DNA of 32,108 nt, from contig CAZPGS010000003.1 in assembly GCA_964586135.1 (NCBI GenBank), positions 5,780 through 37,887 on the forward strand. Direction: 5' to 3'. Position numbers and translations under genes: made by a program. Below, piece by piece: positions 7,675 through 31,921 of this stretch. This DNA comes from an uncultured Nitrososphaerota archaeon. Its GTDB lineage: Archaea; Thermoproteota; Methanomethylicia; Nezhaarchaeales; WYZ-LMO8. The first letter of the stretch is position 1; every line of letters begins with the position of its first letter. Under the pieces are notes generated by a model. The model was not told the origin of the DNA, ran no database searches, and saw only the letters and a program-made list of their open reading frames with translations.

Positions 7675-8960
7675 CTGATAATCCCGTACCCTATAAGCCT
7701 AAACCTTCCAGATATCTGGCGGCTTATCGCTACTCTAGTCCTCGGCTCCGCGCACACCGGCCTACGTAGCCTCACCGAGACCACGTCTTTAGAGGCCTTA
7801 GCGACAGCCCCCAATGTCGTGGCAGTGCCAACGTTTATCATTAAGACCTCGCCGGTCCTTATGCTCTCGACCTTAACCATGTCCACGGTCCCTACGGCCC
7901 TTTCGAATAACACTACTTCTAAGTCGAGGTCAAAGAGCGTTGGGGGGAGCGTCCCAGGCTTGCCCACGACGCTGCCGGCTAGGGAGTCCGATTTTGTGAG
8001 CGAAGGATCGAGAAGCGTGCCGAAGCCTATCAACCCTCCAGGTCTCGCCTCTTCCACTTCCACGTCGCCCGCCTTCAAGCTTACAACTTGAGTGTACAGC
8101 GGCTCATACTCGACCTTTCCGCCTCCCTTCTCCAACCTAATGCCGGGTCTTATCTCGATCTCATCGCCCGTTCTAGCAACACCCTGAATTATAGAACCCC
8201 CTAAAACCCCGCCCTTCAATTCCTCGGGCGTCGTTCCAGGCTTATTGACGTCGAAGGACCTAGCTATTAATGCTCTCAAAGGCTTCGTCGGGTCTCTCTT
8301 CGGGGTCGGAATGACTTTCTCTATGGTCTCTATCAAGACGTCGAGATTTGCCTTATGGAGAGCCGATATCGGAATTATCGGCGCATCCCTATACATGGTG
8401 TCCTTCAAGAACTCTCTTATTTGACGATAGTTCTCAACGACTTTATCTTTAGGAGCGACTTCTATTTTATTCTGCACCACCACCACGTTCTTGATGCCCA
8501 ATATTTCGAGGGCCTTTAGGTGTTCTCGCGTTTGGGGTTGAGGACATGGAACCGTAGCATCAATTACCAATATGGCTCCGTCGAATAGAGTAGCCCCTGC
8601 GAGCATCGTAGCCATCAGCATGTCACGTTGCACGCCCGTTTACGGGCGTGCAATCTCGTGTCCGGGGCAGTCTACGAATGAGTACTTTCTCAAAAACTCG
8701 AGCCTAGACCCGCAGTACTTGCACGTGGTCCCCGATAGCACGTAAGTTGTGTAGCACCGCGGAGGCGGGCACTTGGGGCACTTTAATACCGCAGTGTCGG
8801 CGTAGCCCAGCCTAAGCGTTATCCCCCTCTTTAACTCTTCAGAGTGCCTCGAAGCCCACACGCCCGAGAGGGCCCACGTCAAGGTAGTCTTACCGTGATC
8901 CACGTGACCCGTCGTGCCTATGTTCAGCTCAGCTTGCCTCTTCATCTGCTCCTCGGCCAC
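7671..8960 (-). CDS. eif2g: Translation initiation factor aIF2 gamma, intron-split: join(8960..8655, 8621..7671), 418 aa after splicing
   Basis: Exon 1 has [22 protein letters not shown], a zinc knuckle and DCPGHE. Exon 2 has [22 protein letters not shown] and RSFDVNKPG. Removing 33 nt restores DCPGHEMLMATML. Confidence 0.95.
8622..8654 (-). other. Putative 33-nt BHB-type mRNA intron in aIF2gamma
   Basis: Minus strand: CACG-AG^A-[TTGCACGCCCG TAAA CGGGCGTGCAA]-CGTG-AC^A. 4-bp central helix CACG/CGTG, 3-nt bulges, perfect 11-bp stem, in-frame TAA in the loop. Outer exon helix is weak. Confidence 0.88.
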
Positions 8961-9321
8961 GTCCCACCGCCTTCTCCTCGTGCTTTATGACCATGTTTAT
9001 CTGGACTATGTCCTCGGATATGGTGTTTCCGCGAACGAGCTTCCTCTTCCTTAAACCTCTCTTCTTGGCTCTAAAGCCCGGCCCTTGGCTCAGCAACAGT
9101 CTCCGTTTGACGGGCCCCGGAAGGTCAGGCAACATAGGCGCTCCGCTTCTATCACTCCCACCTCTGATGACTAACTTAACCCCCGGTACTCCAAGTAGCG
9201 CACCGTCAACTTCATCTCCTATCCTGAGCCCTACGAGGGCGCTTGCTTGAGGTCCGCTGACGGTTACTTGTCTGGCCTTTCCAGTCGCTGGGTCGGATAT
9301 GACCACTTTAAACTCAGGCGT
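8929..9321 (-). CDS. rps6e: 30S ribosomal protein S6e
   Basis: [45 protein letters not shown]. Start uncertain (ACG at 9321 or GTG at 9306). Confidence 0.95.
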
Positions 9322-9388
9322 TGTCTTTCACCCCCTTAGCATGAACACACTTCGAGGGTCAGCTAAAAACTTTGAGGCCCTTCGATTA

Positions 9389-11206
9389 CTATCTGCCAGC
9401 AGCCCTCTTTATCTTGGCAATTTCGTCTATGAGTTCTAGTTCTTCCTTTGAGAGTTGGTCGAGGAACTTCTCCTTCAATATTCTTGCATGTTCTGTTGGC
9501 ACGTCGACGTATAGGTAATCGCCCTCGTCGATGTGCCTGCCGACGATCACGTTCCCCCTGATAGAGATCGCTACGGCCTGTCCCGCCACGGCCTCGCTCA
9601 AGCTCTTTTTCTGCTCTTGTATTTGCATTATCACTCCGAGCCTTCTGCCCTTGGCGCTCATCAACGGGTACCCAGGCCTTAGCCTTCCAGCCAGTATTTC
9701 GACCCCAACTATCGCTGGGTCGCTCCTCCTGAATACGTAGCCCTTTAGAATACGGGCCTTCCCGGGCAAGGTTAGAGAGGACAGCGTCTGCCTACGATCT
9801 TCTTCCATTTTCTTCTTGACCCAGTCCAAGTAGTCCTCCACCAACCTGTAAATGACGTTGTTCCTAAACATTGGTATGCCTCTACTCTCTATCTCCTGCT
9901 CCGCGTCGGGGTTTGCACCGACATTGAACGCCAAGATAACGCCGTGGTAGGGGTCCTTCTCTTTAGTTATCGCGGCTTCGACGACGTCTCTCTTCGATAC
10001 CTTCCCAACGTCGGCCAGCCTCACCGACACGCCCAGCCCCTGTAGCTTCGAAACTAAAGCCTCAAGGGAACCTAGGGTATCGGCTTTAACCACCACTCCT
10101 ACCGCGTCCGTCGTTATCCTGATCTTTGAGAGCTCCTCTGCAACCCTTCTTACTGCCTCCTCGATCTCAGCTTGGCTCCTCGCTGAGAAGAAGGGGCTAC
10201 CAGCCACGGCATCGTCTAGGCCCTGGGCGACTATTCTCACACCAGCAGCCGCGACGACCTCGTCCACGCTCTTGAACTTGTCCTCTGGATCCCTCATCTC
10301 ATCCATGGGCTTGGGCATCAGTATGCTCCTAATTTTGGTCACTATGGGGCCTTTAAGCCCGCCGAGCACTATCGTGTCGTCCTTTCCCAGCACGCCATCG
10401 TAAATTATCACGTCTGCGACGTTGCCTAGGCCTAGAACCTCTCTGCACTCCAGCACCACGCCTTTAGCCGCCGACTCCTCGACGTAGAGCCTCTTTAACA
10501 TGTACCTCTGAGAGAGACCGGCTAAGACAAGCAGGAGGTCAGGTATGCCCTCTCCCGTCTTAGCGCTCGTGGGTATCACGGCCACGGTTCTGGTGAAGTC
10601 CCTTATCCTGTCATACCTGTCGGCTTGAAATCCAAGCTCCTCAAACTTAGCCACGATGTTGTAGATGAGCTCGTCGAGCCTCCTCTGGACCTGAGGTTGT
10701 TGCGACTTTATCGTCTCGACGAACGGCTTAAACTCGTTCTTAACCCACCCGGGTATTTTGTCTATCTTGTTTGCGGCGACGACAAAGGGCGTCTTCCTAG
10801 CTTTTAAGATCTCTAAGCTCTCGTAGGTTATCTCTTCAAAACCTTCGAGGATGTCTATGACCAAGATGGCCACGTCGGCTATTGAGCCGCCTCTCTTCCT
10901 CAAGTTCACGAAGGCCTCGTGCCCTGGGGTGTCTATGACCAAAAAGCCGGGTATCTTAATCTCAACCTTTATGTTCTTGAGTAAGGGACCGCACATCCTC
11001 TCAAGAGCAGACCAAGGCAAGAAGGAAGCTCCAATGTGCTGGGTTTGCCACGTAGCGCCGAGCGGGCGCTACATCATGGCCCCGACTTCTCTAAACATGA
11101 TCGCAGTGCCCCTGATCTTGTCGAGGAGGAGGGTCTTCCCCACGTCTACGTGTCCCAATACACATAGGATGGGCGACCTGATTCTCTTGCCCTCACCGCC
11201 GTCCAC
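9389..11206 (-). CDS. infB: Translation initiation factor aIF5B (IF-2), intron-split: join(11206..11075, 11044..9389), about 595 aa after splicing
   Basis: Exon 1 has [29 protein letters not shown]. Exon 2 has [28 protein letters not shown] and [13 protein letters not shown] start at 11206 follows GGAGGTGA. Confidence 0.95.
11045..11074 (-). other. Putative 30-nt BHB mRNA intron in aIF5B
   Basis: Minus strand: GGG-GCCA-TG^A-[TGTAGCGCC CGCTC GGCGCTACG]-TGGC-AA^A-CCC. Complete BHB with outer helix GGG/CCC, central helix GCCA/TGGC and a 9-bp intron stem; in-frame TAG inside. Confidence 0.92.
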
Positions 11207-11284
11207 CTCACAATCACCTCCTCTAGTGGTCAGCTTGATGAAAAAGCTAAGGAGAGAAAGCTCTTTAACTTGTCGTTCCAAAGC

Positions 11285-11737
11285 TCAAAGCCAGGCCTCA
11301 TCGGCTCGTGAGTAATTGCAAAGCTCCCTCTCTTCGAAGAAGATCTTTATTTCCTTCTCGGCGCTTTCCTTGCTATCCGATGCATGGATTATGTTTTGCG
11401 TTATTGAGATCCCGAAGTCGCCCCTAATGGTCCCGGGTGGCGCTTCCTTGGGGTTCGTAGGGCCTATGACCTTTCTGACGACTTGGATGGCGCCGTCGCC
11501 CTCGATAACCCCGACGACTACCGGGGCTGAGGTGATGTAGTTGATCAGCTCCTCATAGAAGTGCTTGCCTTTGTGCACCGAATATAGCTCTTCAGCCTTT
11601 TCTCTCGACATTTTCAACATCTTCAAGCCCACTATCTTCAGGCCCTTCCTCTCAAGCCTCGATAAGACCTCCCCTACGAGGCCCCTTACGACGGCTCCGG
11701 GCTTGATTATTATCAACGTTCTCTCGACGGCCATCAC
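11285..11737 (-). CDS. ndk: Nucleoside diphosphate kinase
   Basis: [35 protein letters not shown]. Confidence 0.97.
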
Positions 11738-11922
11738 TTGTACACCTTCCTAGTCTTCGCGGACCACTTTAGCTTAGCCGGGTTCCTCCTGAGCTTTGTC
11801 ATGTTCTTCTTGCACTTACTTGAGCAGAAGTACAATATGGTCCCATCGTTTCTGACGAACATGAGCCCCGTCCCAGGCGGGACATCCTTCCCGCAGAACG
11901 CACACGAAACTGCCTTGAACAT
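11734..11922 (-). CDS. rpl24e: 50S ribosomal protein L24e
   Basis: [34 protein letters not shown]. Confidence 0.96.
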
Positions 11923-12100
11923 TTTGGCACCGCCTTTAGTGAGGCTTCACGTCCATCTTATAACCCTTACCTCGTCCAAGGCGAGTCAGGGCAGGGTAAG
12001 AAGGGTCGAGAGGGACACGCACGAAGAGCCCCTCGACGCTCTAAGCATGAGAGAGGTTTATCAGCTAGTTCCTCAGAGGCCTAGGTAATAGGTGCGCTCC

Positions 12101-12322
12101 ATGAGCTCTGGCCAAGCTCAAGACGCTACGCCTGCAGAGGTCGTCCAAATAATCGGTAGGACGGGAGTCACTGGAGAGGTCATACAGGTCAGGTGCAGGA
12201 TACTCGAGGGACCTGATAAGGGTAGGATCTTGACGAGAAACGTTAAAGGCCCTGTTAGGATCGGCGATATACTAATGCTCCGAGAGACAGAAAGAGAGGC
12301 TAGGAAACTTACTCCGCGGTGA
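12101..12322 (+). CDS. rps28e: 30S ribosomal protein S28e (inverted relative to neighbours)
   Basis: [46 protein letters not shown]. Confidence 0.97.
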
Positions 12323-12333
12323 TCTAGAAGAGC

Positions 12334-12804
12334 TCACTTCTTCCTCTCTTTCCTCTCTTTCTTGACCTCCTTCTTAGCTGGTGCCGCCTTTTCTTCAACA
12401 GGTGGCGCTACTAGCGCCGTCGGTAAGCCGGCTTTAGCCTTTATTTCGTTGATCTTAGCCACCAACTCTTCTACGAGCTCTTTGGCCTGTCCCGCTTCGA
12501 TTATCGCAGCCGACGCGGCCTTTACCTCAATTCCAGCCGCTTGTCCTAGCTTTTCTTTGCTCGGTACGTAGATGTACGGTATTTTCCTCTCTTCACATAA
12601 CAATGGCAAGTGCATAACTACTTCTGGAGGGTCGACGTCCTCGGCTATTAGCACGAGCTTCGCTAGCCCCCTCTCGACGGCCTTCGTTGACTCGTTGGTT
12701 CCCTTCTTTATCTTGCCCGTCTCTCTAGCTATCTTTAAGGCCTCGTAGGCCTTTTCAGCGAGCTCAGGCGGCGCCTCAAACCTAACGTAGCTTGGCTTTG
12801 GCAC
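12334..12804 (-). CDS. rpl7ae: 50S ribosomal protein L7Ae with charged C-terminal tail
   Basis: [47 protein letters not shown]. Confidence 0.97.
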
Positions 12805-12868
12805 GAATCCCTCACCCCTCCTACTTCATCGATTCATAGGTTAGGTGTGTCTTTATTTACTGGCACAG

Positions 12869-12882
12869 CTTATAAATTTTTT
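12869..12882 (-). promoter_or_regulatory. BRE/TATA promoter of rpl7ae
   Basis: Minus strand AAAAAA-TTTATAAG about 65 nt upstream of the GTG start, implying a leader of roughly 40 nt. Confidence 0.6.
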
Positions 12883-12898
12883 AACTTATAGCCTTTGG

Positions 12899-14650
12899 CT
12901 ACTCATGGGCAAAATAGAATACAAGCCTCCGTGTCTTCACATCCTTGTGGTCGAGCCTCGCGAACCCTATGCGCACTAGCTGGACTATGGATCCTTCGCC
13001 TAGCATTTCAAGCGCCCTCTCTCCGATCCCTATGGCTTTGCTGGCATCTGGCATCACAACCTCGACTTCAATGTTGTCATCGGCTGGGACCCATTGTATT
13101 ATCGGGGCTTTGAGGCGCGAAGCCTCTTCAACGCTCTCCCCTTTGTAAAATGCGTATGCCGTATCGCCCTCGACCCCCTCTAATTGAATATTAAATAGGG
13201 ACATTAACCGAACGAAGTGATTGCGCTTTAAGAGCTCAACGTCTCTCTTGGATATGTAGACCCTAGCCTCGCCCTCGACCAATTTCACCTCTATCTCTCT
13301 GTAACCTCTCTCAGGGAAGTCTGGATGGAGTTGGGGCCTAGCAATAAAGTTGGTCGGAACGCCCTTAATTACGAGCTTTACGGGCTCAAAAACACAAAAG
13401 TATCTATCAGCTCTCGGGTCCAAGTGCTTGCGGTTCACGGAGTATATGTTCTCCCAACTTAGCGATGCCTCTGAGCTCTTTACCCCCACGTGGAGTATTA
13501 TCTCCCTGAGGGTCTCTGGCAATATGCCCCTCTTCCTAGTGGCCATTATCGTGCCTAGGCGAGGGTCGTCCCACCACGAAAACTCTCGTTTCGCTATGCC
13601 CTTGCTTATTTGGGACTTGCTCAATATTATGCCCGTCAGCTTTAAGCGGCCGAAGTGGATCGTCTCTGGGAACTTCCACCCCATGTGGTCGAAGACATAC
13701 CTCTGCTTGATCGTGTTGGTTATGTGCTCTTTAGCCCTCAATATGTGGCTTATCTCGAGCTCGTGGTCATCAACGGCAGAGGCGAAGTTGTACGTGGGCC
13801 ACACGAAGTATTTGCTTCCAACTCTTGGATGAGGGTTCTTCTCAACATCTATTATCCTAAAGGCGACCCACTCTCTCACTGATACGTCGGGGTAATTTAG
13901 ATCGGTCTTTATCCTGACGACTGCCTCCTTTTCTCCGTACTTCAGGGACAACATGCCCTCGAACCTCTCAAGGTGTTCATTAGGGCTCAGCCCCCTGCAT
14001 GGACAAGGCTTGCCCATGTCGCGGAGCGACTTAAAGAGCTCTTGGTCGCAAGTGCATACATACGCCCCGCCCCTCCTCAAGAGCTCTTTGCAAACATCAT
14101 AATACACTTCTAGCCTATCGGATTGATACACGACTTGGCCAGGCTTTATCCCCAACCACTCCATGTCCTCTATTATCCACTTGTAAGCCTCTGGTAGCGG
14201 CCTCTTTGTCTTCGGATCAGTATCGTCGAACCTCAGTATGAACCTCCCCTTGTACATTTTGGCGTATTCATAGGACAAAATGAGCGGTCTAAGGCTACCT
14301 AAGTGAAGCGGGGCGTCGGGATTGGGAGCAAATCTTGTTACTATTACCTCATACTTGTCAACGTTGGGGAGAGGGGGCAAGGACTTCTCCTCCACCTCCT
14401 TCTTCTTCACTATGGCCCCCGGATACTTCTCCTCCACCTCCTTCCTGATCTCCTCCACGCTCATCCTGTTTACTTCGTTTATTATGCCTTCGACCAATTT
14501 AGCGAGGGCCTTAGCCTGGCTTCTCAGGTCAGGCCTCACAGCAATGACTTTGCCGAGTACAGGTCCCTGGACCGCCTTTCCGCCGTGCTCGTAGGCGTTT
14601 ATCAAGGCATACTTTCTTATTAGCTGAACTACGTCGTCTGAGAAGCTCAT
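12899..14650 (-). CDS. gltX: Glutamate--tRNA ligase
   Basis: ALINAYEHGGKA, TRFAPNP..LHLG, LRFDDTDP, ISHILRAKEH, LSKS, WDDPRLGT. Confidence 0.96.
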   Translation of the reverse strand: MSFSDDVVQLIRKYALINAYEHGGKAVQGPVLGKVIAVRPDLRSQAKALAKLVEGIINEVNRMSVEEIRKEVEEKYPGAIVKKKEVEEKSLPPLPNVDKYEVIVTRFAPNPDAPLHLGSLRPLILSYEYAKMYKGRFILRFDDTDPKTKRPLPEAYKWIIEDMEWLGIKPGQVVYQSDRLEVYYDVCKELLRRGGAYVCTCDQELFKSLRDMGKPCPCRGLSPNEHLERFEGMLSLKYGEKEAVVRIKTDLNYPDVSVREWVAFRIIDVEKNPHPRVGSKYFVWPTYNFASAVDDHELEISHILRAKEHITNTIKQRYVFDHMGWKFPETIHFGRLKLTGIILSKSQISKGIAKREFSWWDDPRLGTIMATRKRGILPETLREIILHVGVKSSEASLSWENIYSVNRKHLDPRADRYFCVFEPVKLVIKGVPTNFIARPQLHPDFPERGYREIEVKLVEGEARVYISKRDVELLKRNHFVRLMSLFNIQLEGVEGDTAYAFYKGESVEEASRLKAPIIQWVPADDNIEVEVVMPDASKAIGIGERALEMLGEGSIVQLVRIGFARLDHKDVKTRRLVFYFAHE

Positions 14651-15753
14651 AGAGTCTTCCTTCTCCTTAAATATTCGTCAATATTTATGCCCCTCATCTG
14701 AAGCCACTCTTTAACCCTTCCCGTTATGACGACCTCGGCCCTCTTCAGGTCTCTCAGGCTTCGAGAAGCCGTTAAAAACATGGCCCCTTGCAGTTGCTCT
14801 ATTAGGACATCTAGGTAAGCCCTTAAGGCATCGACGCCACGCCCTACGGCCCTCAAAGCTGGCAAGGCTATCCCAACGAGGTCGGCCCCCAACGCTATGG
14901 CTTTAGCACAATCGACCCCGCTCCTCACTCCTCCAGATGCTATCACGGGGACGTCGACCCCGCTCCTCACCTCTATAAGGCTCACAACGGTCGGTATGCC
15001 CCATTCAGCGAAGGCCTCAGCCACTTCGGTCTTAAAACTATCTCCGTGCCTCTTAGCCCTCAATGCCTCGACTTTGCACCAACTGGTCCCCCCAGCTCCA
15101 GCCACGTCTATAGCCTTCACAAGCCCCTCTTTGACGAGCCTTATAGCATCTTCACGTGAAATACCGCATCCAGTCTCCTTGACTATTACGGGGACTTCTA
15201 CAGCCTCCGAAATCCTCCTAATGGCCTGCAATACGCCTTTGAATTTAAGGTCTCCTCCCATTTGAGAGAACTCATGCGCTGGGTTTAAGTGTATGTTAAG
15301 CGCATTAGCCTCGATCATCTCGATCATCTTGCGCACATCGTTCACATCAAACTGGCTAACTAGTTGAGCCGCGCCGACGTTGGCGATCACGTAGGCCGTC
15401 GGGGCCTTCTTGCGCACCACGGCAAAGGTATCTACGAGGCTCTTGTCGAGCAGCGCGGCCCTCTGACTGCCTACGGCCATAGCCAAGCCCATTTCCTCGA
15501 CGACTTGGGCTACTGCACTGTTTATTTCTTTGGCCCTCGGATGCCCCCCAGTCATGGCCGAGATCAGGATTGGGGCCCTTAATTTGAAGCCGAGGAAATA
15601 GGTCTCTAGATTTATCTCGTCAATGTCCATTTCGGGTAAGCATCTATGGACGAGCCATACATCCTCAAACCCAGTGCTGTTGCGATGCATTTCGACATCC
15701 TCTCTCAAGCATATCTCTATGTGCTCAAACTTTCGATTGCTTATGTCGTCCAT
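14647..15753 (-). CDS. fni: Type 2 isopentenyl-diphosphate delta-isomerase
   Basis: RKFEHI, ISAMTGG, VGSQRAA, IHLNPAHE, VKETGCG, AGAGGTSW, WGIPT, SGGVRSG. Confidence 0.96.
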   Translation of the reverse strand: MDDISNRKFEHIEICLREDVEMHRNSTGFEDVWLVHRCLPEMDIDEINLETYFLGFKLRAPILISAMTGGHPRAKEINSAVAQVVEEMGLAMAVGSQRAALLDKSLVDTFAVVRKKAPTAYVIANVGAAQLVSQFDVNDVRKMIEMIEANALNIHLNPAHEFSQMGGDLKFKGVLQAIRRISEAVEVPVIVKETGCGISREDAIRLVKEGLVKAIDVAGAGGTSWCKVEALRAKRHGDSFKTEVAEAFAEWGIPTVVSLIEVRSGVDVPVIASGGVRSGVDCAKAIALGADLVGIALPALRAVGRGVDALRAYLDVLIEQLQGAMFLTASRSLRDLKRAEVVITGRVKEWLQMRGINIDEYLRRRKTL

Positions 15754-15758
15754 TTCGC

Positions 15759-16550
15759 TTAGTCCTCCTTTATTACGGTCCCTTTAAATTTCAGTCCATC
15801 AAGGGCTTTAAGCAGATTTTTTCTACGCCAACTTACGAAGCAAACAACTTTTACGCCACCACGAAAAGCGCTAAAGGCCTCATATATCTTCCTAACAAGA
15901 CCGCCTGTGGCGTCGGGGTCGGAAGACGCTATCTCTATTCTTTTTAGAACCTCTTCGTTTAAGAACTTTACGAGTTTAGCCCTTGGCTTCTTCCTGGGAT
16001 CTTCAAGGTATATGCCGTCAACGTCGAGCACGTAAATTAGCTTGTCGGCCTTAAGCTTCAAAGCCAGAAATGAAGCCACTGTGTCGCCAGACAAGATCGT
16101 TACGCCGCGCTCGCCTCTATTTAAGACGACGTCCCCGTATAGGACAGGAAGGAACCCCTTCTCTAACGCTGCCTCGACGCCTTTGATGAAGTATTCCTTG
16201 ACCTCGCCTCCTTCCAAGATGGACGAAGATGACGGCTCGAGGGCATAAGGCCTTCCCCCCAGCTTTATGAATTCCTTAACGACCTCTTCGTTAAGTCTCC
16301 TCATAGCCAACCTCGTGAGCACGACGCCCTTGTAACTCTCGTCACTAAGTAGCCCCGCGCTCAGCCTATATCTCATAGCCAATGGATGGCCAAAGGATCC
16401 ACCACCATGAACCACGACGACTTTGCCTCCTTTCTCGATGTGGTTGAGGACTTGAGAACACATGCTCCTCAAGGCCCCTTTCCTAATGGTGAATGGCTTG
16501 TCCTTCACAGTGATGGCACTGCCCCCGAACTTTACTATCGACAAGGTCAT
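15759..16550 (-). CDS. ipk: Isopentenyl phosphate kinase
   Basis: KFGGSAIT.K, VHGGGSFGH, PVLYGDV, ILSGD, DVDGIY, DATGG; next to fni. Confidence 0.92.
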   Translation of the reverse strand: MTLSIVKFGGSAITVKDKPFTIRKGALRSMCSQVLNHIEKGGKVVVVHGGGSFGHPLAMRYRLSAGLLSDESYKGVVLTRLAMRRLNEEVVKEFIKLGGRPYALEPSSSSILEGGEVKEYFIKGVEAALEKGFLPVLYGDVVLNRGERGVTILSGDTVASFLALKLKADKLIYVLDVDGIYLEDPRKKPRAKLVKFLNEEVLKRIEIASSDPDATGGLVRKIYEAFSAFRGGVKVVCFVSWRRKNLLKALDGLKFKGTVIKED

Positions 16551-16557
16551 AGCCTAC

Positions 16558-18248: not shown

Positions 18249-18287
18249 ATTTCAACACCTGAAGAAAATTAGCCTAAATAAGGCTCT

Positions 18288-18929: not shown

Positions 18930-18938
18930 ACCACCACC

Positions 18939-20207: not shown

Positions 20208-20223
20208 CGAGCGTCCTCCCACA

Positions 20224-20430: not shown

Positions 20431-20446
20431 GAGCGCTCACTTCGCG

Positions 20447-22468: not shown

Positions 22469-22474
22469 GCCCTC

Positions 22475-22924: not shown

Positions 22925-23421
22925 CAGCCTTCACCTCCACCGCTTTGGAGGGAGATGGGCTGGCCGACTAAGTTTATGAGCCTCTCCTCGTCTATTGTCA
23001 CCAGCCTATTGGGAGTCCTCACCCTCATCCCGCCTATGGCCACATGGCCGTGGACTATTAGCTGGCGAGCATGGTGCATACTCTTGGCCAAGCCCTTCCT
23101 GTAGACTATGGTCTGAAGCCTTCTCTCTAAGACGTCTTCAACCCTCAGCGAGAGTACGTCGTCGAGCGTGGCGTTCGCTGGTAAGAGGCCGAGCCTATAT
23201 AGTCTGCCCAATAGCTCTTGGACTCGTCTCTCATCCCTCTGGGCCAAAAGCCTTCTAGCGTAGTGCCTAAACTTCCTCAAAATGGTCATAGCCTTCCAGA
23301 GCTCGCGCTTGTTTCTGAGGCCGTAAATCCCGAGGAGCTCCATCTCCCTCCTGAGCACGTCCCTCCTCCAGGGATGTCGTGGACCTTTCCAGGTCTTCTT
23401 AGGCTTCTTTGGATCCCCCAT
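22924..23421 (-). CDS. rps4: 30S ribosomal protein S4
   Basis: [35 protein letters not shown]. Confidence 0.97.
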
Positions 23422-23435
23422 AAGGCCACCTTCGC

Positions 23436-23888
23436 CTACCCTTTCGGCTTCTTCTTAACCCCAACGGTCATGCCGACCCTACCCGTGGTTCTAGTGCGTT
23501 GTCCCCTGACCTTTAAGCCGAGGGCGTGCCTTATGCCGCGCCAGCACTTAACCCTCTTGAGCCTCTCCACGTCCTCCTTGACGGTGAGCACTAAGTCCGG
23601 ACCTATCAAAAGTTTGTACTCTCCAGTCTTGTAGTCCTTCTGCCTATTGAGGGCCCAGCGGGGGATGCCATATCTCATAGGATTGGCTACGACGTCCTCT
23701 ATCTTCTTAACTATGACGTCTGACAAGTAGCCGATCCTCATGGTCCTGTCCAAGTCGAGTGCATTAACTATGGCCCTAGCGAGTGTTGGGCCTACGCCTC
23801 TAATCCTAGCTAGGCCTTCCTCTATGTTTAGGCCGCCGTCTATGTCTACTCCTGCTATTCTGATTATGTGCCTGAACTCTTGGGACAT
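23436..23888 (-). CDS. rps13: 30S ribosomal protein S13
   Basis: FRHIIRIAGVDIDG, NRQKD, WRGIRHALGLKVRGQRTRTTGR. Confidence 0.97.
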   Translation of the reverse strand: MSQEFRHIIRIAGVDIDGGLNIEEGLARIRGVGPTLARAIVNALDLDRTMRIGYLSDVIVKKIEDVVANPMRYGIPRWALNRQKDYKTGEYKLLIGPDLVLTVKEDVERLKRVKCWRGIRHALGLKVRGQRTRTTGRVGMTVGVKKKPKG

Positions 23889-24389
23889 TGCCGGCCCTCT
23901 CTTGCGGTAACATTTTGTGAGTTAGAGAGCCAGATGGCGGTAAATATACTTTACTAAAAAGGTCTAAAGATTTCCATCCTCGAGGCAATGACCGGCGTCG
24001 CGCTTACGCCGTAAGGACCTTTATTTGAACAGCTTCGCAAACGTCGTTGCGACCTCAGAAGGTAGCGCATGTGATTGGCATTATGACGGGCTCTGACATA
24101 AGCTATACCCCATCCATATAAAAGCGAACTTTTACGAACGCCGAAGCCGAAATCTTTGGCAAGCTCGCGTCGCTGGTTAACAACGCGTATACCGTCGCCA
24201 CACCTTAAGCCCCCTTATCTTGCGTCGTCTTGGCCTTTCAACGTGGTCCTCGCCGCCGAGAGCCCCTCGTCCCTCGAGGGCAAGCTCTAGATCACGCTTA
24301 TCACGCCTGCGCTCGTCCCTGCTCGTCGAGCAAGGCTCAGCGACCTCTCGAGTAAAGGATATCTTGTGAATATTTGAGTTAAGCTAAGG

Positions 24390-24800
24390 GTGACGCCCGT
24401 GATAAGTGAAGAGCAGGTCGAAGCCTTTCTAGATGAGCATAACGTCTTTGCGGTTGTGGGGGTCAGCCGCAACCCTCAAAAGTACGGCCATCAAGTGTAT
24501 AAAGACCTCAAGAGTGCTGGCTATAAAGTGTACCCGGTGAACCCCAACGCTCAGGAGGTTCTAGGCAATAAGTGCTATCCGTGTCTAGAGGAGCTCCCTG
24601 AGAGGCCCGATGTCGTCGTGACAGTGGTCCCTCCGCAAGTGACAGAGCAGGTCGTCAAGACATGCAAGGAGCTGGAGATAAAGAGGGTGTGGATGCAGCC
24701 AGGCTCCGAGTCAGAAGAAGCGATAAGGTTCTGCAAGGAGAACGGTCTAGAAGTGGTTTACGACAAGTGCATAATGGTCGAGAGGAAAAGGAGGAAATGA
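24390..24800 (+). CDS. CoA-binding domain protein (YccU-like)
   Basis: AVVGVSRNP.KYG, YPVNP, CYP.L.ELP, VWMQPG.ES, CIMV. Confidence 0.92.
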   Translation: MTPVISEEQVEAFLDEHNVFAVVGVSRNPQKYGHQVYKDLKSAGYKVYPVNPNAQEVLGNKCYPCLEELPERPDVVVTVVPPQVTEQVVKTCKELEIKRVWMQPGSESEEAIRFCKENGLEVVYDKCIMVERKRRK

Positions 24801-25235
24801 CTGCTCATAACGGCTAAAGATTAATGCGAACTACCCCATCCTTTAACGGAAATTTTGGCAAGCTAAAGCAGTCATTTAAGTGGTAGCTTAGCAATTTTTG
24901 TCCGTATAACTTCAGGTCCCCACCACGTCGACATAAATGTTCACATATGTGCAAGAAGTTTAAGACGTCTTCTGAGGCCATAGCTACTACTCTTGAGGCC
25001 TGTGAGTCATCTTTCGAAGCTTAAGAGGCTTAGAGACCTCAAGTGTGATCCTCGGATCGGCAAAGGGTCCTCGAAATTTGGACTTGGCAAGGACTCGAAT
25101 GGCACCTCAAAAGAAGGTCAAATATGTCTTAAAGGACTTGAGAAAAGCTCGGGCATCATAAGAGTAGAGATGCGCGCGCCTTTATGGTTGTGCTAAGAGA
25201 CGGCCGCTATTGGGAATAAGGATTGTAGAGAATGC

Positions 25236-26579
25236 TTAGAGCTTTGTAAACGCATCTAGAGCTGCTATAACGATTGGATTTGCTCCTGGAGATGCTGTTA
25301 ACTTCGGATGTGATGCGAACTCCATGGTGATGACCTCGTCGATCTTCATCTCGTTCTGGATAGCTATTGATAGCGCGTTGATGACCTCTGCAATTTCATG
25401 GCATGTGCTGGCGCCCTGCGCCCCTACGAGGGTTCCATCTTTTAAGAACACCAGCTTTAGCTCTATTTCGCATGCGCCTGAAAGCCATGTTGGGTGTCTG
25501 TTGACAACCTTTGACCTCCCAACCACATATGCAAGGTTCCTCCTCTTAGCGAAGCTCTCGGTAACACCAGCGCAGCCCAATACTAAGTCTCCAACTTTTG
25601 TCACAAATGTCCCGCACCACCCCTTCATCCTTTTGACCGTCCTCACGCCATAAAGGTTCGTGACAGCTATGTTTGCTTCTTGACAAGCAATTGATGCTAA
25701 CAGGAATGGCGCGGGTTCTCCGAGCAGGAAGTGTCTTTTCTCAGCGCAATCCCCAATAGCAAGTATATCTGGGTCGCTAGTCCTCATGTACTCATCGACG
25801 ATAATGCCACGATCTCCAACGTTTAAGTCGATCTTCTTGGCCAGCTCTACGCTTGGGCGATAACCGCTTGCGACGACGACCAGATCAGCTGGCAGGCTCT
25901 CTCCATCGTCGAGCTCTACGCCCTCTACCTCTTCCTTGCCGTAGATCCTTTTGACCGTTCTCTGCGTTATTATCTTCACGCCTTTTTGTTTCAATTGCTC
26001 TTCCGCCTTTATTGCGAATTCTTCATCGAAGTTCAGGATTAGGCAGTGCGGAAGCACTTCTACTATCGTTACGTCTTTCTTAAGGTTCGCCACATCATCA
26101 GCGATCTCTACTCCCACGAACCCACCGCCAATTATGACGATCTTGCTCGCTCCTCTAATCGCCTTTTGCAGTTCTACGACTTTTTCGTAGCCCTTGTAGA
26201 CTGCAACCACGTTCTTCAAATTGATACCGTCTATGGGTGGGACGGAAGGCCTCCCGCCAACGGCTAAAATTAGTTTGTCATACCCATAGGTCTTGCCGGA
26301 GGCGACTATGACCCTCTTGTTCTTCCTGTCAACGTCGACCACTTCGTCGACAACGATGCTTACCCCCCGTTTGGTAAGCGCATCATATGGTAATAGAGCA
26401 CTGTCACAGCTCTCTATCGAGTACGGCACGTAAGGTATTGCACACGGTATGACTGCCTTACGCTCCCTAGTTATGAGGAGAACCGATTTGTCCTCGTAAA
26501 GCCTCCTAGCCCTGAGCGCTGCTGGAACTCCGCTCGCACCTCCGCCGACTATTACTATATCATACTTATTCTCGTTCAT
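25236..26579 (-). CDS. FAD-dependent pyridine nucleotide-disulfide oxidoreductase (NADH oxidase / CoA-disulfide reductase family)
   Basis: IVGGGASG, single redox Cys in PCAIPY, YDKLILA.G, IIGGGFVGVE, TSDPDILAIGDC. Confidence 0.9.
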   Translation of the reverse strand: MNENKYDIVIVGGGASGVPAALRARRLYEDKSVLLITRERKAVIPCAIPYVPYSIESCDSALLPYDALTKRGVSIVVDEVVDVDRKNKRVIVASGKTYGYDKLILAVGGRPSVPPIDGINLKNVVAVYKGYEKVVELQKAIRGASKIVIIGGGFVGVEIADDVANLKKDVTIVEVLPHCLILNFDEEFAIKAEEQLKQKGVKIITQRTVKRIYGKEEVEGVELDDGESLPADLVVVASGYRPSVELAKKIDLNVGDRGIIVDEYMRTSDPDILAIGDCAEKRHFLLGEPAPFLLASIACQEANIAVTNLYGVRTVKRMKGWCGTFVTKVGDLVLGCAGVTESFAKRRNLAYVVGRSKVVNRHPTWLSGACEIELKLVFLKDGTLVGAQGASTCHEIAEVINALSIAIQNEMKIDEVITMEFASHPKLTASPGANPIVIAALDAFTKL

Positions 26580-26883
26580 AGCCTTTAACCCCGCTCGTAT
26601 GAGTTGCTGTTCTAGAAAAATATTACGCCGAGTCTAAGGACCGTAAGACGTCCAAAAAAGTTGCTCGCGATGTTAACCCAAATGTTCTAAGCCCTACACA
26701 AGTCGATAAGAGGTCAAGTCGCGCGCACCTCAAAGCGCGTCGTCTTTGATAAGTCATTGAAGCTTGCGAATAGAGCTTAACTTGCCTCGTAATTTCTGCG
26801 CAAAGCCATACACGCAGGAATGCGCACGAGAAACAAAAATTCTCTGCAAATATAACCGCAGGGCGTAGGGGGTTGTTTTAACG

Positions 26884-27452
26884 ATGGAATTATCCACAGA
26901 AGCGAAGGAATTAGTAAAGAGATTTCTAAAGACGGAAAAGCAAAAGAATTATCAAAAAGGATTATCAATTTGATTTTCTTGTCGATTATCAAAAGTGTAT
27001 AAAGTGGGAAGATGTAGAAATAGGAGTGGAAGAAGAGGTCAGCAAGGAGGAGTTTGTTGTAACGAAGAGTGATGTAGACGCTTATAATGAAGAAACCGAC
27101 GAGGTAAGTCTAGTCTTCACAAGTGAAGAATTTGCAAAGAAGACGGCGTGTGGAGGACCTATCACTCCGCCCATGTTTATCACGCCCATAGCTTTCTAGT
27201 TGGCTGGAGATAGTGAAATAGGTAATTGGATTGAGACTCCGAGCGCCATAAACCCTGGGCAGAAAAAAATTGAATTTTATGAGCCCATCAGGGTGGGCGA
27301 TGTCATCAAGGCAAGAATGGTAGCATACGACAAGTGCATCAAAAAGAGGAAAGCGTTACTTAACATACTACATAGAGTTTTTCAATCAGCGAGGCGAGAT
27401 AGTCACTATAGGAAAGGCCGAGGTATACTTATCTTCGTGCGCTAACAAGTGA
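26884..27452 (+). pseudogene. MaoC/hot-dog-fold dehydratase pseudogene
   Basis: Reconstructed ..KWEDVEIG..EEFAKKT..GGPITPP..(TAG 27197)..EFYEPIRVGDVI..[frameshift in A-run near 27341]..RGKRYLTYYIEFFNQRGEIV. Another frameshift follows the ATG at 26884. Confidence 0.7.
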
Positions 27453-27553
27453 TAGCAGGTAACTTGCGCAGTCATCGCTATGGACTTGGACGTAAAACAG
27501 AGAAAGGTGCTAAGGCCCAGCATGGCCTACGCATATACTTTTTCCGAGCAGAC

Positions 27554-27790
27554 ATACCTTTCAATACCACAATAATTACCCCTAAAATCTACGAGGCGTC
27601 GTCGAAGCTTAAGAAGCCCGGAAAGAGATTTTCAGGCGCTGTCCTCGGGCTGGTAAGGGGGATTTCCGGCATTTTGGAGCTGACGGGAGCTTGGAGCGAC
27701 GTCGGGGAGGAGAGGGGCCGAGGGCATCTTTAGGGAAATCAGAAAGACGCAAACCTTGTGGAGGCTCCGGCAAAAGCCTTGCTTGACATG
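27554..27790 (+). pseudogene. Degraded VapB-type antitoxin
   Basis: (ATA)PFNTTIITPKIYEASSKLKKPGKRFSGAV..ILELTGAWSDV resembles archaeal VapB (KTITIS.EVYE.L.KLK.PGESFS.VI..L..LAGAW). Start codon lost, frameshifted end; boundaries approximate. Confidence 0.5.
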
Positions 27791-27870
27791 GACGATGTCA
27801 TAGGCTTTTAGAGCATTGAGAGACGGCGTTGACTATGTTAAGGAGCGAGCAATTGCGATAGAGAACATGG
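27758..27870 (+). pseudogene. Degraded VapC/PIN toxin N-terminal fragment
   Basis: VEAPAKALLDMDDVIGFL then frameshifted LRDGVDYVKE; resembles the PIN start LLDTDVLI.FLRG..DAV; overlaps the vapB remnant. Confidence 0.4.
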
Positions 27871-27939
27871 GCTCCCCTTTAAGACCTCTAGGAAAGACAC
27901 ATGACCTTAAGACCTCAACGCCTTCGATCAGTGTTTTAG

Positions 27940-28014
27940 TGCGGCCGCCGGGATTTGAACCCGGGTCCGCAGCGTGGCAGGCTGCCGTCCTAGTCCAGGC
28001 TAGACTACGGCCGC
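27940..28014 (-). tRNA. tRNA-Gly(GCC), no intron, CCA not encoded
   Basis: GCGGCCG acceptor stem, anticodon arm GCAGC-CTGCCAC-GCTGC, T-arm CCGGG-TTCAAAT-CCCGG. Confidence 0.97.
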
Positions 28015-28039
28015 CTCTTTTCTACATTGAGAGGGTGGA

Positions 28040-28474
28040 TTATAGGTTTTTCTTCGCCGTCCTTAGTAGCTCCTCTATCTTTGACAAATGCCTCGAGAGG
28101 TAAACGGCTTGGCTCGAGGCCTCTATTAGCGCCCCCCTCTCTACTACTAAATGCTTCATCCTCACATCGGCTTGCGCTATCCTCTTCGCTTGCTCTGCCA
28201 CTACGTGTAGTTGCGTACAGTGGGGAGAGCCGTCCATCGTCACTACCGCTATCGAGGAGGGCCTCGCGTAGGCAATTATCGTGGCTATCTTGAAGCCGAC
28301 CTTGTCTAAGTGCTCCTCGCTCATGCACACACTGAGCGCCGTCTTCCCCTTGGCCTCCTCCTCAAAGACCTCTGGGTACTCCATCGGCAAGCACTTACTG
28401 TAGATGAGCAAGTCCTTGCCCTTCAGAAAGGGGCTTGTGACGCTTACGGCCATTAACTCCAAACTTCTCCACAT
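28040..28474 (-). CDS. Conserved archaeal Cys-containing protein (possible Fe-S/metal-binding domain)
   Basis: 144 aa from ATG at 28474, divergent from the MFS gene; spaced Cys in SKC, SVC and DGSPHC. Confidence 0.65.
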   Translation of the reverse strand: MWRSLELMAVSVTSPFLKGKDLLIYSKCLPMEYPEVFEEEAKGKTALSVCMSEEHLDKVGFKIATIIAYARPSSIAVVTMDGSPHCTQLHVVAEQAKRIAQADVRMKHLVVERGALIEASSQAVYLSRHLSKIEELLRTAKKNL

Positions 28475-28532
28475 GAAGTTATTTATGCCAGCTGGTTGAA
28501 TAAAACGTTCACCACAGTCTTGGGGCCTCACG

Positions 28533-29663
28533 ATGTCCAAGAGGAGCATTGCCGCCTTAGCGCTGTCCATGTTCTTTATAACCATGTCCATGGGTATAGC
28601 GAATCCCGTGGTCCCGTTGTACGCCAAGGACCTCGGGGCCACATATACCGATCTGGGCCTAATAGGCGTGGCTTGGTCGGCGCCCTACTGCTTCTTCCCC
28701 GTGCTCGCTGGGCTTTGGAGTGATAGGATCGGCAGGCTGAAGGTCCTCTTAATGGGGATATCGACGAGCATCGTAGTGCCTCTCCTGCTTTTAATCTCCA
28801 AGTCGCCCTTCGACATAGCGCTCGTCAGGTTCTTCCACGGCGTGGGCCTATCATTTCTATGGGTCGCGGGCGAGGCCTTGATATCTGACGTGACCAAGGA
28901 GGAGGAGAGGGCTAGGCACCTTGGCCTCTTCAACGCGTCGTGGGCCATGGGCTACTTCATCGGGCCCATGGTGAGTGCCCTCACGATCGAGCGCGTGGGC
29001 TATGCGGGCATTTTCTGGCTCTCCTTCTATGCTAGCCTGGCTTCGCCGTTAGTGCTGTTGTTGGCCGAGGGGGACGTCAAGCCAAGCCGGAGTGCGGAGG
29101 GTAAAATCGTGGACCGTGTGAGGGAGGCCCTCTCCAAGGCCTCGTCCTTCTACTTGGCAGTGATAGCGTCCAGCATAGTCATGTCGATAATCTACAGCGT
29201 CTACCCAGCTTACCTCCGCGAGCTTCGCTTCACAGACTCCGAAGTATCGTTCGTAGTGGGCGTGGTGGCCGCGGCGAGGGCTGCAGGCTTCTGGTCTGTG
29301 ACCATCGTCTCGGGCCTTGGTGAGAAGAAGGCCGTTTTCTTGGGCCTGTCGCTTCAAGTGATCGCCTCGCTCCTCATAGTCCTCGCCCACGGGCTCGTCT
29401 TCGCGGCTCTCGTAGCAGCCGTGGCCGGCTATGCCATCGGGGTGCTCGTGCCACCGTCAACTTCAGCCATCTCTAGGACGCTCGGCGGGGACTTCGGCCT
29501 GCTCCTCGGGATAATGGAGTCCATGTTCGGAGTCGGGTGGGTCGTGGGTCCCGGAGTCGGCGGCTTCTTGGCTGATTACACCTCGTGGAGCACTTCTCCG
29601 TACATATTCATGGCCCTCGTGAGCGCAGCCTCGCTGGCCTACTTCGTTGCGAGGTCTAGGTAG
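28533..29663 (+). CDS. MFS transporter
   Basis: Many hydrophobic segments; motif A GLWSDRIGRLK; RFFHGVG; GPGVGG. Confidence 0.93.
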   Translation: MSKRSIAALALSMFFITMSMGIANPVVPLYAKDLGATYTDLGLIGVAWSAPYCFFPVLAGLWSDRIGRLKVLLMGISTSIVVPLLLLISKSPFDIALVRFFHGVGLSFLWVAGEALISDVTKEEERARHLGLFNASWAMGYFIGPMVSALTIERVGYAGIFWLSFYASLASPLVLLLAEGDVKPSRSAEGKIVDRVREALSKASSFYLAVIASSIVMSIIYSVYPAYLRELRFTDSEVSFVVGVVAAARAAGFWSVTIVSGLGEKKAVFLGLSLQVIASLLIVLAHGLVFAALVAAVAGYAIGVLVPPSTSAISRTLGGDFGLLLGIMESMFGVGWVVGPGVGGFLADYTSWSTSPYIFMALVSAASLAYFVARSR

Positions 29664-29705
29664 CGAGTAGAAGTGTTGATATATTCCCCTGCATGGTGTT
29701 AAAGC

Positions 29706-30344
29706 GTGAGCTTGGCCAAGCGCATCGACTACACGAACGTGAGGCCGGACGCCACGCTTCGCGACATCGAGGAGCTCTGTAAGGAAGCCCTCGAGCTCGG
29801 CGTCAGGGCCGTGTGCGTCAACCCCTGCTACATCAGCTACGCTAAGAAGCTCGTCGGGAGCGAGATCTTAGTGTGCGCCGCGATAGACCTGCCCTTCGGC
29901 TCCTCCAAGATAGAGATCAAGAAGAGGGCCGTCGAGGAAGCTATAGCCGACGGGGCTGACGAGGTGGACTACGTGATAAACATAGGGATGTTGAAGAGCG
30001 GCTTCCTGGACTACGTCGTGCAGGAGGCGTACGAAGTGCTTAAAGGGGCTAGCGGTCGCGCCGTCAAGGCGATAATCGAGACGGGGTGCTTAACTGTTAA
30101 GGAGATGGAATCTGTGGCGGTGAAGCTAGCTGGAGCTGGCGTCCATTACGTGAAGACATGTACGGGTTATGGGCCTAGAGGAGTGACCGTAGAGGACATC
30201 TTAATATTGAAGAGGGCCTTAAAGGGGAGGGCTGGGGTTAAGGCGGCCGGGGGGATAAGGAATTTGCAAATGGCGCGGAGGCTCATCGACGCCGGAGCAG
30301 ACATAATAGGAACGAGCGCCGCTAGGCTCATCTTAAGACCCTAA
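29706..30344 (+). CDS. deoC: Deoxyribose-phosphate aldolase
   Basis: IDYT, AVCVNP, GADEVDYVIN, KAIIETG, Schiff-base Lys in VKTCTGY, VKAAGGIR, GTS. Confidence 0.93.
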   Translation: MSLAKRIDYTNVRPDATLRDIEELCKEALELGVRAVCVNPCYISYAKKLVGSEILVCAAIDLPFGSSKIEIKKRAVEEAIADGADEVDYVINIGMLKSGFLDYVVQEAYEVLKGASGRAVKAIIETGCLTVKEMESVAVKLAGAGVHYVKTCTGYGPRGVTVEDILILKRALKGRAGVKAAGGIRNLQMARRLIDAGADIIGTSAARLILRP

Positions 30345-30631
30345 AGAGCTCGGCGCTTGTGAGCAAAGGGTTGACGCATGTGCTCCTCGGCTAATTGTAT
30401 GCGATTGGACCCCCCACCATCGTAGTAGGGGTCCGCTCACCTCGAAAACTCTTCTCTAAATCCTCTTGATCGTGCGCGAACACGCTCCACAGCCCTCAAT
30501 CCCATTCTCCCGAGCTTACATTAGAGGGTAGCCCTCGAGGAGGGCTTCTGCATGGCCTTAAGTCGACGACTAGGGCTTAAAGTGGCCCTTAGCTCGTGCC
30601 GGCATCGAGGTCCTAGAATGCAAGGAGTTAG

Positions 30632-30742
30632 TGCGGGGGGTGGGATTCGAACCCACGAAGGCCTGCGCCACGGGATTTCCCATCCGGCCTCGAGCAAGAG
30701 AGATCTTAAGTCCCGCCCCTTTGTCCGCTCGGGAACCCCCGC
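30632..30742 (-). tRNA. tRNA-Leu(TAA) with 28-nt intron at position 37/38 (30677-30704)
   Basis: GCGGGGG/CCCCCGC acceptor stem, CGGGA-CTTAAG^intron^A-TCCCG, long variable arm, GTGGG-TTCGAAT-CCCAC. BHB: CTTA/TGGG helix with bulges AGA and AAA. Confidence 0.95.
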
Positions 30743-30831
30743 GCTCTTTTATGCAAATCCTCGAAGAGACTTAAAAAGCTTGATGTAAAGCGCGATCGCC
30801 TTTTATCGCCAACCACGATACCTGTGAGTGG

Positions 30832-31921
30832 GTGCGGCCTTTGAAGTTCTTCGAGGCTAGGAGCGTGGAATGGAGGGGTGGAGTTGTTAGGCTCATAGAC
30901 CAGAACGCCTTGCCCTGGGAGCTACGCTACGTGGAGTGCAGAAGCCCCGAAGAGGTCGCGAGGGCCGTGAAGGACATGACCGTGAGAGGGGCCCCGGCAA
31001 TAGGAGTCGCTGCAGCCATGGGGATAGCGCTCGCGGCCTACCACTCCAACGCTAGGGACTTAGAAGCGCTTCTGAGGGACGTAGAGAAGGCGGCTCAAGT
31101 GCTGTCCAAGGCTAGGCCGACGGCGAGGAACCTCTTTTGGGCCATTGAGAGGATGACGAGCACCATCAGGAGGGCTCCGAGCCTTGAGGAGGCCAAGAGG
31201 ATCGCCGTGGAGGAGGCCGTCAGGATGGCGGACGAGGACGTGGGGGTAAACAAGAGGATAGGCGAGATAGGCGCCTCCCTGATAGAGGACGGCGACACGA
31301 TACTGACCCACTGCAAACAGCTGGGCTGAGCAACCCGGCTGGCAGATCGCGGGAGCGCTGGCTACCGTAGGGTACGGCACAGCCCTAGGCGTAATTAGGA
31401 GCGCAGTGGCGCAAGGGAAGAGGATAAGGGTCATAGCGACTGAGACGAGGCCGAGGCTACAAGGGGCGAAGCTGACGGTGTACGAGCTCAAGAGGGACGG
31501 GATAGACGTGACGCTCATAACTGACAACATGGTCGGCTACGTCATGAGCCAAGGAATGGTGGACAAGGCCGTCGTGGGGGCCGATAGGGTATTGAGGGAC
31601 GGGCACGTGGTCAACAAGGTAGGGACGCTGACCATAGCCATCGTGGCCAGCAGGTACTCGGTGCCCTTCTACGTCGCGGCGCCCTCTTCTACCTTCGACT
31701 TGAGCTCGAGAGTCGAGGACGTGGTGATAGAGCAGAGGGACCCGAGAGAGGTGCTGGAGGTTAATGAGAGGCCGATAACGATAGACGTGGAGGTCCTCAA
31801 CCCCGCCTTCGACGTAACGCCGCCCGACTTGGTGACCGCGATAATAACGGAGAGGGGCATAATAAGGCCTCCGTACCACGAGAACATACCCAAGACGATG
31901 GCGAGGGCGACAAACGTTTAA
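30832..31921 (+). CDS. mtnA: Methylthioribose-1-phosphate isomerase (eIF2B-related family), intron-split: join(30832..31316, 31348..31921), 352 aa after splicing
   Basis: DQNALP, VRGAPAIG, RPTARNL, TILTHC|NAGALATVGYGTA, ETRPRLQGAKLT, VGADR, NKVGT, NPAFDVTP. Confidence 0.92.
31317..31347 (+). other. Putative 31-nt BHB-type mRNA intron in mtnA
   Basis: CTGC-AA^A-[CAGCTGGG CTGAGCAA CCCGGCTG]-GCAG-AT^C. Central helix CTGC/GCAG, 8-bp stem, TGA in the loop, frameshifting. Removal gives TGC AAC GCG (C-N-A). Confidence 0.88.

Follow-up and report, generated by a model that had tools for sequence, protein, structure and literature searches.

A BHB (bulge-helix-bulge) intron in the pre-mRNA of the crenarchaeal gene cbf5 was reportedly described by Watanabe and co-workers in 2002. 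The study of Yokobori et al. (2009, PMC2738675) places the boundary of the crenarchaeal cbf5 intron between letters one and two of the catalytic Asp codon, predicts cleavage between the second and third bulge residues, and mentions spliced cbf5 cDNAs as well as predicted cases in other genes (its references 39 and 50). For Haloferax volcanii, Schwarz et al. (2020, PMC7714728) report a BHB intron in the 5' untranslated region of HVO_1309, with cbf5 as the only other mRNA case until then. Here we analysed a stretch of 32,108 nt (G000:C3:5780-37887; hereafter the window) from a metagenome bin of 1.03 Mb in 113 contigs that is 85% complete. The relatives of the window are metagenome-assembled genomes of Candidatus Nezhaarchaeota/Nezhaarchaeales from hot springs. 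Three genes in the window, encoding aIF2gamma, aIF5B and an isomerase of the mtnA (S-methyl-5-thioribose-1-phosphate isomerase) family, are interrupted by inserts of 33, 30 and 31 nt, respectively. We consider it very probable that these inserts are genuine archaeal BHB introns inside coding sequences, which are removed by the tRNA splicing endonuclease EndA and whose flanking exons are joined by the ligase RtcB.

Each host gene appears in the list of open reading frames (ORFs) as two ORFs, and its two pieces match consecutive positions of one NCBIfam profile. The aIF2gamma gene is listed as ORFs 8640-8960 and 7671-8633 on the minus strand. Its exon 1 (8655-8960) is open from a GTG at 8960 to the 5' splice site and matches positions 3-97 of the 412 of NF003077, and exon 2 (7671-8621, to the stop) matches positions 96-411 and is 100% identical to G000:C3:13453-14412. 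Between them lies the 33-nt insert with an 11-bp hairpin (8622-8654; motif 8621-8660), which was identified by sequence, descriptor and fold. The aIF5B gene, also on the minus strand, is listed as ORFs 11069-11281 and 9389-11020. Exon 1 (11075-11281) is an open frame within which the start codon is not fixed, its residues 31-69 matching positions 6-44 of the 598 of NF003078; the 30-nt insert (11045-11074; motif 11044-11080) forms a 9-bp hairpin with one G-U pair, and exon 2 (9389-11044, to the stop) matches positions 54-591. The mtnA gene lies on the plus strand as ORFs 30832-31329 and 31406-31921. Exon 1 (30832-31316) matches positions 10-166 of the 358 of NF004326, the 31-nt insert with an 8-bp hairpin (31317-31347; motif 31311-31348) splits an Asn codon after its second nucleotide, and exon 2 (31348-31921, to the stop) matches positions 187-355. 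The orthologue of mtnA in G016, an intron-poor genome of the same class with about 60% protein identity, aligns over the junction without a gap.

All three inserts share one layout: four exon nucleotides, a 3-nt bulge, the hairpin, four nucleotides complementary to the exon nucleotides and a second 3-nt bulge. Each begins with A and carries a stop in the upstream frame (TAA in aIF2gamma, TAG in aIF5B and TGA in mtnA). An earlier note on this DNA had given the insert ends, the layout, the leading A and the stops, and sequence reading together with a descriptor scan bore these out to the base. It had also called the inserts mutually unrelated in sequence, and the genome comparison agreed, giving no likeness of the inserts to each other or to other places in the genome. 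The minimum-energy fold of every window insert is the helix-bulge-hairpin arrangement, with z-scores of -5.07 (aIF2gamma), -2.67 (aIF5B) and -1.75 (mtnA); 0, 3 and 12 of 200 shuffles, respectively, folded equally well. In aIF5B, an outer helix of 3 bp completes the full helix-bulge-helix-bulge-helix.

A strict motif scan of the genome and a search for split genes revealed three further introns that follow the same rule. They lie in uS5 (30 nt, C9:5876-5905; exons matching NF003125 positions 5-66 and 67-208), cbf5 (21 nt, C11:3726-3746; NF003280 positions 5-66 and 68-321) and hypD (21 nt, C39:4715-4735; exon 2 matching TIGR00075 positions 43-366, the reference being contiguous over the junction). 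In all six genes, two 3-nt bulges on opposite strands are separated by a 4-bp central helix. An inner helix of 3-11 bp is present in every instance, one aIF5B instance having a mismatch at the foot of this helix. Exon-exon pairing adds an outer helix of 2-4 bp in hypD, of mostly 3 bp in uS5 and of 3-6 bp in aIF5B. The bulges are rich in A: among 69 intron instances drawn from loci L001-L271, the first nucleotide of the 3' bulge is A in 65, all four exceptions being cbf5. Introns start with A, at the third nucleotide of the 5' bulge, in 67 of the 69 instances; the exceptions, one in cbf5 and one in hypD, start with G.

Cutting after the second nucleotide of each bulge restores in silico both the reading frame and the orthologous junction in six of six genes. 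The predicted junction is encoded without a break in the intron-free orthologues of aIF2gamma (20/20 loci), aIF5B (5/5), mtnA (5/5), uS5 (1/1), cbf5 (9/9) and hypD (the one locus placed). The cut rule that the earlier note had proposed for the three window genes, as restoring their family motifs, thus agrees with orthologues that are contiguous at the very same positions. All six introns also lie within highly conserved motifs, as had been noted for the first three, a pattern that is biased by detection since verification needs homology at the junction.

Distribution among relatives was compared gene by gene. All 10 genomes of the family to which the window belongs, from 4 genera, carry the aIF2gamma intron at one shared site, with lengths of 31-35 nt; 20 genomes representing seven other class families all lack it. 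In the 149 further genomes of the phylum that were sampled and gave an aIF2gamma match, the frame runs open through the site for at least 389 residues in every case, versus 322 here. The aIF5B intron was found at 7/7 family loci (29-33 nt) and at 0/5 more distant loci, and that of mtnA (27-32 nt) in 9/9 family genomes with the gene and in 0/5 from the two sister families. The hypD intron is present in 9/9 family genomes and absent at the one sister-family locus that could be placed. Wider distributions were seen for uS5, whose intron (22-34 nt) occurs in both larger families of the order and in 14 of its 15 genomes, the exception being the only genome from the third family, and for cbf5, with an intron at 21 of 30 loci across the class (19-29 nt) and none at the other 9. 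Wherever an intron is present it sits at the same site (aIF2gamma 10/10, aIF5B 7/7, mtnA 9/9, uS5 14/14, cbf5 21/21, hypD 9/9), and lengths within a gene differ by a few nucleotides.

These data bear on the reading that the genes are simply broken, as pseudogenes or split genes, or that the inserts are assembly artefacts. Each gene is indeed two ORFs by the standard code, and the bin is a fragmented metagenome bin that also contains true frameshifts. Against this stands the recurrence of the inserts at identical sites in genomes that were assembled independently, up to 14 for uS5 or 21 for cbf5, with compensatory changes and no other lesions. At the DNA level, the aIF2gamma site was spanned by contigs of three sequencing runs from three studies (X1, X2 and X3) with 0 differences, and the aIF5B site by contigs of two of these, again with 0 differences; the source sample may itself be among the three. 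The strain in a fourth run, X4, carries the aIF5B intron with one deletion and one insertion in the loop, its length being kept. No joint lacking the intron was found in the contigs of the runs at the aIF2gamma and aIF5B sites. The presence of the inserts in DNA is thereby shown. Nor did the assembly hold a second copy of aIF2gamma, aIF5B, uS5, cbf5 or hypD, so that no intact aIF2gamma or aIF5B stands beside a decaying one; mtnA has a 38%-identical paralogue on C30. The hosts include single-copy core genes, and the breaks fall inside motifs where a split protein would hardly tolerate them. Broken genes or artefacts are thus extremely improbable, and this explanation can be taken as largely refuted already.

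The secondary structure itself is under selection. The central 4-bp helix is fully paired in 68 of the 69 distinct intron instances from the six genes. Covariation was quantified in 14 sequences of uS5, where 97.3% of cells were paired, versus 16-43% when the partners were slid by 1-3 columns. Eight of 16 pairs change on both sides, and the observed values were reached by 0 of 500 column shuffles; as the uS5 sequences are related and not independent, these figures overstate the significance somewhat, the slid controls being unaffected. One both-side change falls in the central helix between exon and intron, where the intron has changed in step with a synonymous substitution in a Thr codon. A constraint on the exon half of the motif was seen in aIF2gamma and cbf5 (loci L001-L030 and L189-L218, respectively): genes with the intron use one fixed codon choice in the four exon nucleotides, whereas their intron-free orthologues use several synonymous codons. 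The comparison with relatives that the earlier note had envisaged thus gave, for the three window introns, presence at all family loci compared and absence from those outside the family, along with compensatory changes in helices.

The same observations weigh on translational recoding, in which the insert would be kept in the mRNA and the ribosome would bypass the hairpin or shift frame. Each insert does form a stable hairpin and brings a stop codon shortly past the break, features shared by the bypass site of phage T4 gene 60. Yet a conserved and covarying 4-bp helix between exon and insert, flanked by 3-nt bulges, is what an endonuclease substrate looks like, not a pair of take-off and landing codons. 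The inserts measure anything between 19 and 35 nt, and orthologues differ in their frame offset. In this genome the cbf5 junction lies between the first and second nucleotides of the catalytic Asp codon (gene on C11), which is the site for which PMC2738675 reports spliced cDNA in crenarchaea. We regard recoding as highly unlikely.

By analogy with that experimentally spliced cbf5 intron at the same codon position, we infer cleavage, ligation and the identity of EndA and RtcB as the enzymes of BHB intron removal. Two EndA genes were found in 10/10 genomes of the class that were examined (G003, G005, G006, G009, G010, G013, G015, G016, G019 and G023), so the subunit type, which the earlier note had left to be determined, appears from these sequences to be the two-subunit crenarchaeal type in the relatives. 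For the EndA alpha of G005, a genome of the same genus as the bin, the closest match is 3p1z_B, the catalytic chain in the heterotetramer from Aeropyrum pernix (E 2.5e-50). The G005 subunit has Tyr, His and Lys at aligned positions, which we take to be the catalytic triad. RtcB is full length in 5/5 relatives. Class families poor in introns have both EndA genes as well, so that the enzyme type allows the introns without explaining them.

Introns are also predicted in tRNA genes. Genome-wide, ARAGORN with introns allowed predicted 26 tRNA genes, 10 of them with introns, and the tRNA-splicing machinery must therefore be active. One of these, a tRNA-Ser(UGA) with a predicted 28-nt intron, lies in the window on the minus strand (30631-30742; C3 c[36410,36521]) and was missed by the default tRNA scan. 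The low tRNA count suggests that further tRNA genes are hidden by unusual introns or missing from the bin.

Several results weigh against removal by EndA and RtcB as we propose it. The outer exon-exon helix measures only 0-1 bp in aIF2gamma (10 instances) and 0 bp in mtnA (8 instances), so that by their predicted structure the motifs of these two genes are relaxed and not canonical BHBs, and their cleavage by the enzyme of this lineage is presumed. Relaxed forms of this kind are assigned to (alpha-beta)2 or epsilon2 enzymes in PMC5829648. Thermodynamic support is weak for the short introns, with fold z-scores of 0.02 in cbf5 and -0.30 in hypD. Motif counts by themselves are scarcely above chance: the compact BHB descriptor gave 752 matches in the genome versus 599-655 in three dinucleotide shuffles, and a tighter scan, with coding potential on both sides and a broken frame, gave 46 matches versus 36 and 39 for mis-cut decoys. 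Because the motif is common by itself, we place the weight on exact frame restoration, junction homology, and conservation with covariation, and not on motif counts. The bin's own enzymes are a further difficulty. The only EndA found in it is a beta-like subunit (G000:C22:7334-7597, minus strand; L137:1474-2061), which has Gly where the M. jannaschii enzyme presumably has its catalytic His. EndA alpha was not found in this 85%-complete bin, though it occurs in all relatives examined; given that completeness, the gene may be unassembled. The RtcB of the bin (G000:C23:2176-3219, minus strand; L138:1498-2718) lacks 92 residues in frame compared with that of G005 (residues 59-149 of the latter), and its Pfam match starts at profile position 86. 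Either the assembly is faulty here, or the very ligase that the introns would need carries a true deletion. Of the machinery that the introns would need, an EndA of broad specificity together with RtcB, the relatives carry two EndA genes and an intact RtcB, and the bin itself shows a beta-like EndA and a shortened RtcB.

The motifs without an outer helix in two genes and the incomplete look of the bin's EndA and RtcB genes could also be read as signs that the inserts are removed at the RNA level by some other nuclease and ligase. The geometry and the cut rule, however, coincide with the EndA substrate rule as published in PMC2738675, and the relatives possess both EndA subunits and an intact RtcB. 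The predicted introns in 10 of 26 tRNA genes likewise speak against a separate pathway. We therefore judge removal by other enzymes to be very unlikely.

Taken together, comparative evidence strongly supports the view that the inserts are BHB introns, predicted to be cut after the second nucleotide of each bulge by EndA and joined through RtcB. The EndA-substrate geometry that the earlier note had recognized in these protein genes is upheld by sites shared within the family, contiguous orthologues, compensatory helices, a cbf5 intron at the published position and the occurrence of EndA and RtcB in relatives. According to this model, each gene would be transcribed with its insert. In the pre-mRNA, the four upstream exon nucleotides would pair with a tetranucleotide close to the insert's 3' end, forming the 4-bp central helix with its two 3-nt bulges; the insert's own hairpin would serve as the inner helix and, in some genes, a short exon-exon helix as the outer one. 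A heterotetrameric (alpha-beta)2 EndA would then cut between the second and third nucleotides of each bulge, and RtcB would join the exons into a mature mRNA encoding the full-length protein. The released intron of 20-35 nt would probably be circular. Copies left unspliced would give a truncated product because the insert has an in-frame stop or shifts the frame.

Our census combined a strict motif and coding scan with a comparison to the ORFs of G016 that picked out genes matching as two separate pieces. This comparison has little sensitivity for exons of small size or low conservation. It recovered four of the six introns, and the other two came from the strict motif scan. A second census in 800 kb of G005 recovered the same introns and none new. 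The earlier note had claimed that this lineage splices many mRNAs with the tRNA machinery; six coding-sequence introns were verified in the 85%-complete genome, but "many" is not shown, with no new intron in the 800 kb of G005. Since the reference G016 is distant and the bin incomplete, six is a lower bound.

Other candidates from the scans were rejected. Those at C11:422-442 (uL15/SecY), C25:7322-7345 (TldD/LeuRS), C29:7390-7411 (Orc1/Lrs14), C87:1730-1747 and C19:9617-9635 are gene junctions. C64:3030-3052, within a gene for a ClC channel, is ordinary coding sequence in G005 or the reference, and so are three in-frame candidates, C1:21787-21846, C18:4210-4236 and C36:2281-2316. Pairs of high-scoring segments for the reference ORFs r374 and r381 and for the r2843 paralogues had no BHB solution or traced to a spurious reference ORF, and apparent introns found via r5531, r535, r3495 and r1529 are located in the rRNA operon. 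Plain frameshifts with no BHB solution were found at C44:~3567, C5:12750-13060, C15:2140-2430, C27:~2075 and G005:C1:~257750; these are likely assembly errors or real lesions, unrelated to the introns. The one on C44 falls in a beta-CASP ribonuclease-like gene, and one G005 frameshift stems from a 19-nt tandem duplication. A relaxed scan (inner helix of at least 3 bp, intron up to 150 nt, coding filter) gave no signal, with 1650 matches versus 1621 and 1645 for mis-cut decoys, and a first ORF-join scan was uninformative, being swamped by open off-frames.

Two side observations concern the near-complete, 1.49-Mb genome of G005. Four of the six host genes (uS5, mtnA, aIF5B and aIF2gamma) lie within about 37 kb of each other (G005:C1:395.5-433.2 kb), which may stem from a preference for strongly expressed genes, from the grouping of conserved or highly expressed genes, or from the way introns are gained. 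The other is a 29-nt hairpin insert relative to G016 within the region of the 23S rRNA (G005:C1:689525-689546); seen only through alignments of spurious ORFs, it may be a micro-intron in rRNA.

As to origin, the introns of aIF2gamma, aIF5B, mtnA and hypD were, by their distribution, gained within one family and are comparatively recent. A tentative extension, possible but doubtful on present data, is that this family underwent a burst of BHB-intron gain into protein genes, with the cbf5 intron old and class-wide, that of uS5 shared by two families and the other four family-specific. Since the inserts resemble neither each other nor other loci, there is no support for recent transposition or copying between sites. 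In each case, four nucleotides from a run of highly conserved codons serve as the exon side of the intron's motif. If such a burst took place, there would be an active route for creating new endonuclease-dependent mRNA introns, candidates being a reversed EndA/RtcB reaction whose product is then copied into DNA, or hairpins that grow de novo beside suitable exon tetranucleotides. Synthesis of two initiation GTPases and a ribosomal protein would then depend on tRNA splicing, which could couple both processes.

BHB introns in tRNA, rRNA and cbf5 are known in kind; new here are at least five host genes and the presence of at least six such introns in one family. Among open-access papers and preprints we found no report of coding-sequence BHB introns beyond cbf5, an earlier report elsewhere being possible; nor was there an open-access report of such introns in aIF2gamma, aIF5B, uS5, mtnA or hypD, or one pairing Nezhaarchaeota with introns. 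Our results indicate that BHB introns are not confined to cbf5: protein genes can acquire them more than once, and selection can then maintain them. This bears on the origin of introns in prokaryotic-type genomes. The set also offers natural relaxed substrates for an (alpha-beta)2 endonuclease. In practical terms, standard annotation will call such core genes split genes or pseudogenes, and completeness estimates and metabolic inferences for the lineage will be off.

Compared with the described systems, the introns are most like that of crenarchaeal cbf5: a short BHB or relaxed BHB intron in a coding sequence, with the same predicted cut and a hetero-oligomeric EndA, and, in the cbf5 of this genome, at the same codon site. 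They differ in having five more hosts (aIF2gamma, aIF5B, uS5, mtnA and hypD), four of which carry the intron in one family only, and in belonging to a Nezhaarchaeales-like lineage and not to Sulfolobales or Desulfurococcales. With the BHB introns in tRNA and rRNA of Thermoproteales and other archaea they share the motif, the small size, a site-specific exon half and presumably the enzymes, and intron-bearing tRNAs are predicted here too. Here, however, the introns sit in mRNAs, where the frame survives only if excision is accurate to the nucleotide, and the exon half consists of codons under protein constraint. Like the HVO_1309 intron, ours would be tRNA-splicing-endonuclease introns in mRNA; that intron lies in an untranslated leader, whereas here the coding sequence is interrupted at catalytic or nucleotide-binding motifs. 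A more distant parallel is the splicing of HAC1/XBP1 mRNA through IRE1 and RtcB, in which a protein endonuclease cuts at stem-loops, RtcB-type ligation follows and the frame is changed, the whole acting as a regulated stress switch. This system is named in PMC13149111. Both would remove a short mRNA intron independently of the spliceosome, with RtcB-type ligation and a change of frame, but the endonuclease and the motif are different, and the eukaryotic case is regulated, whereas the archaeal introns give no sign of regulation.

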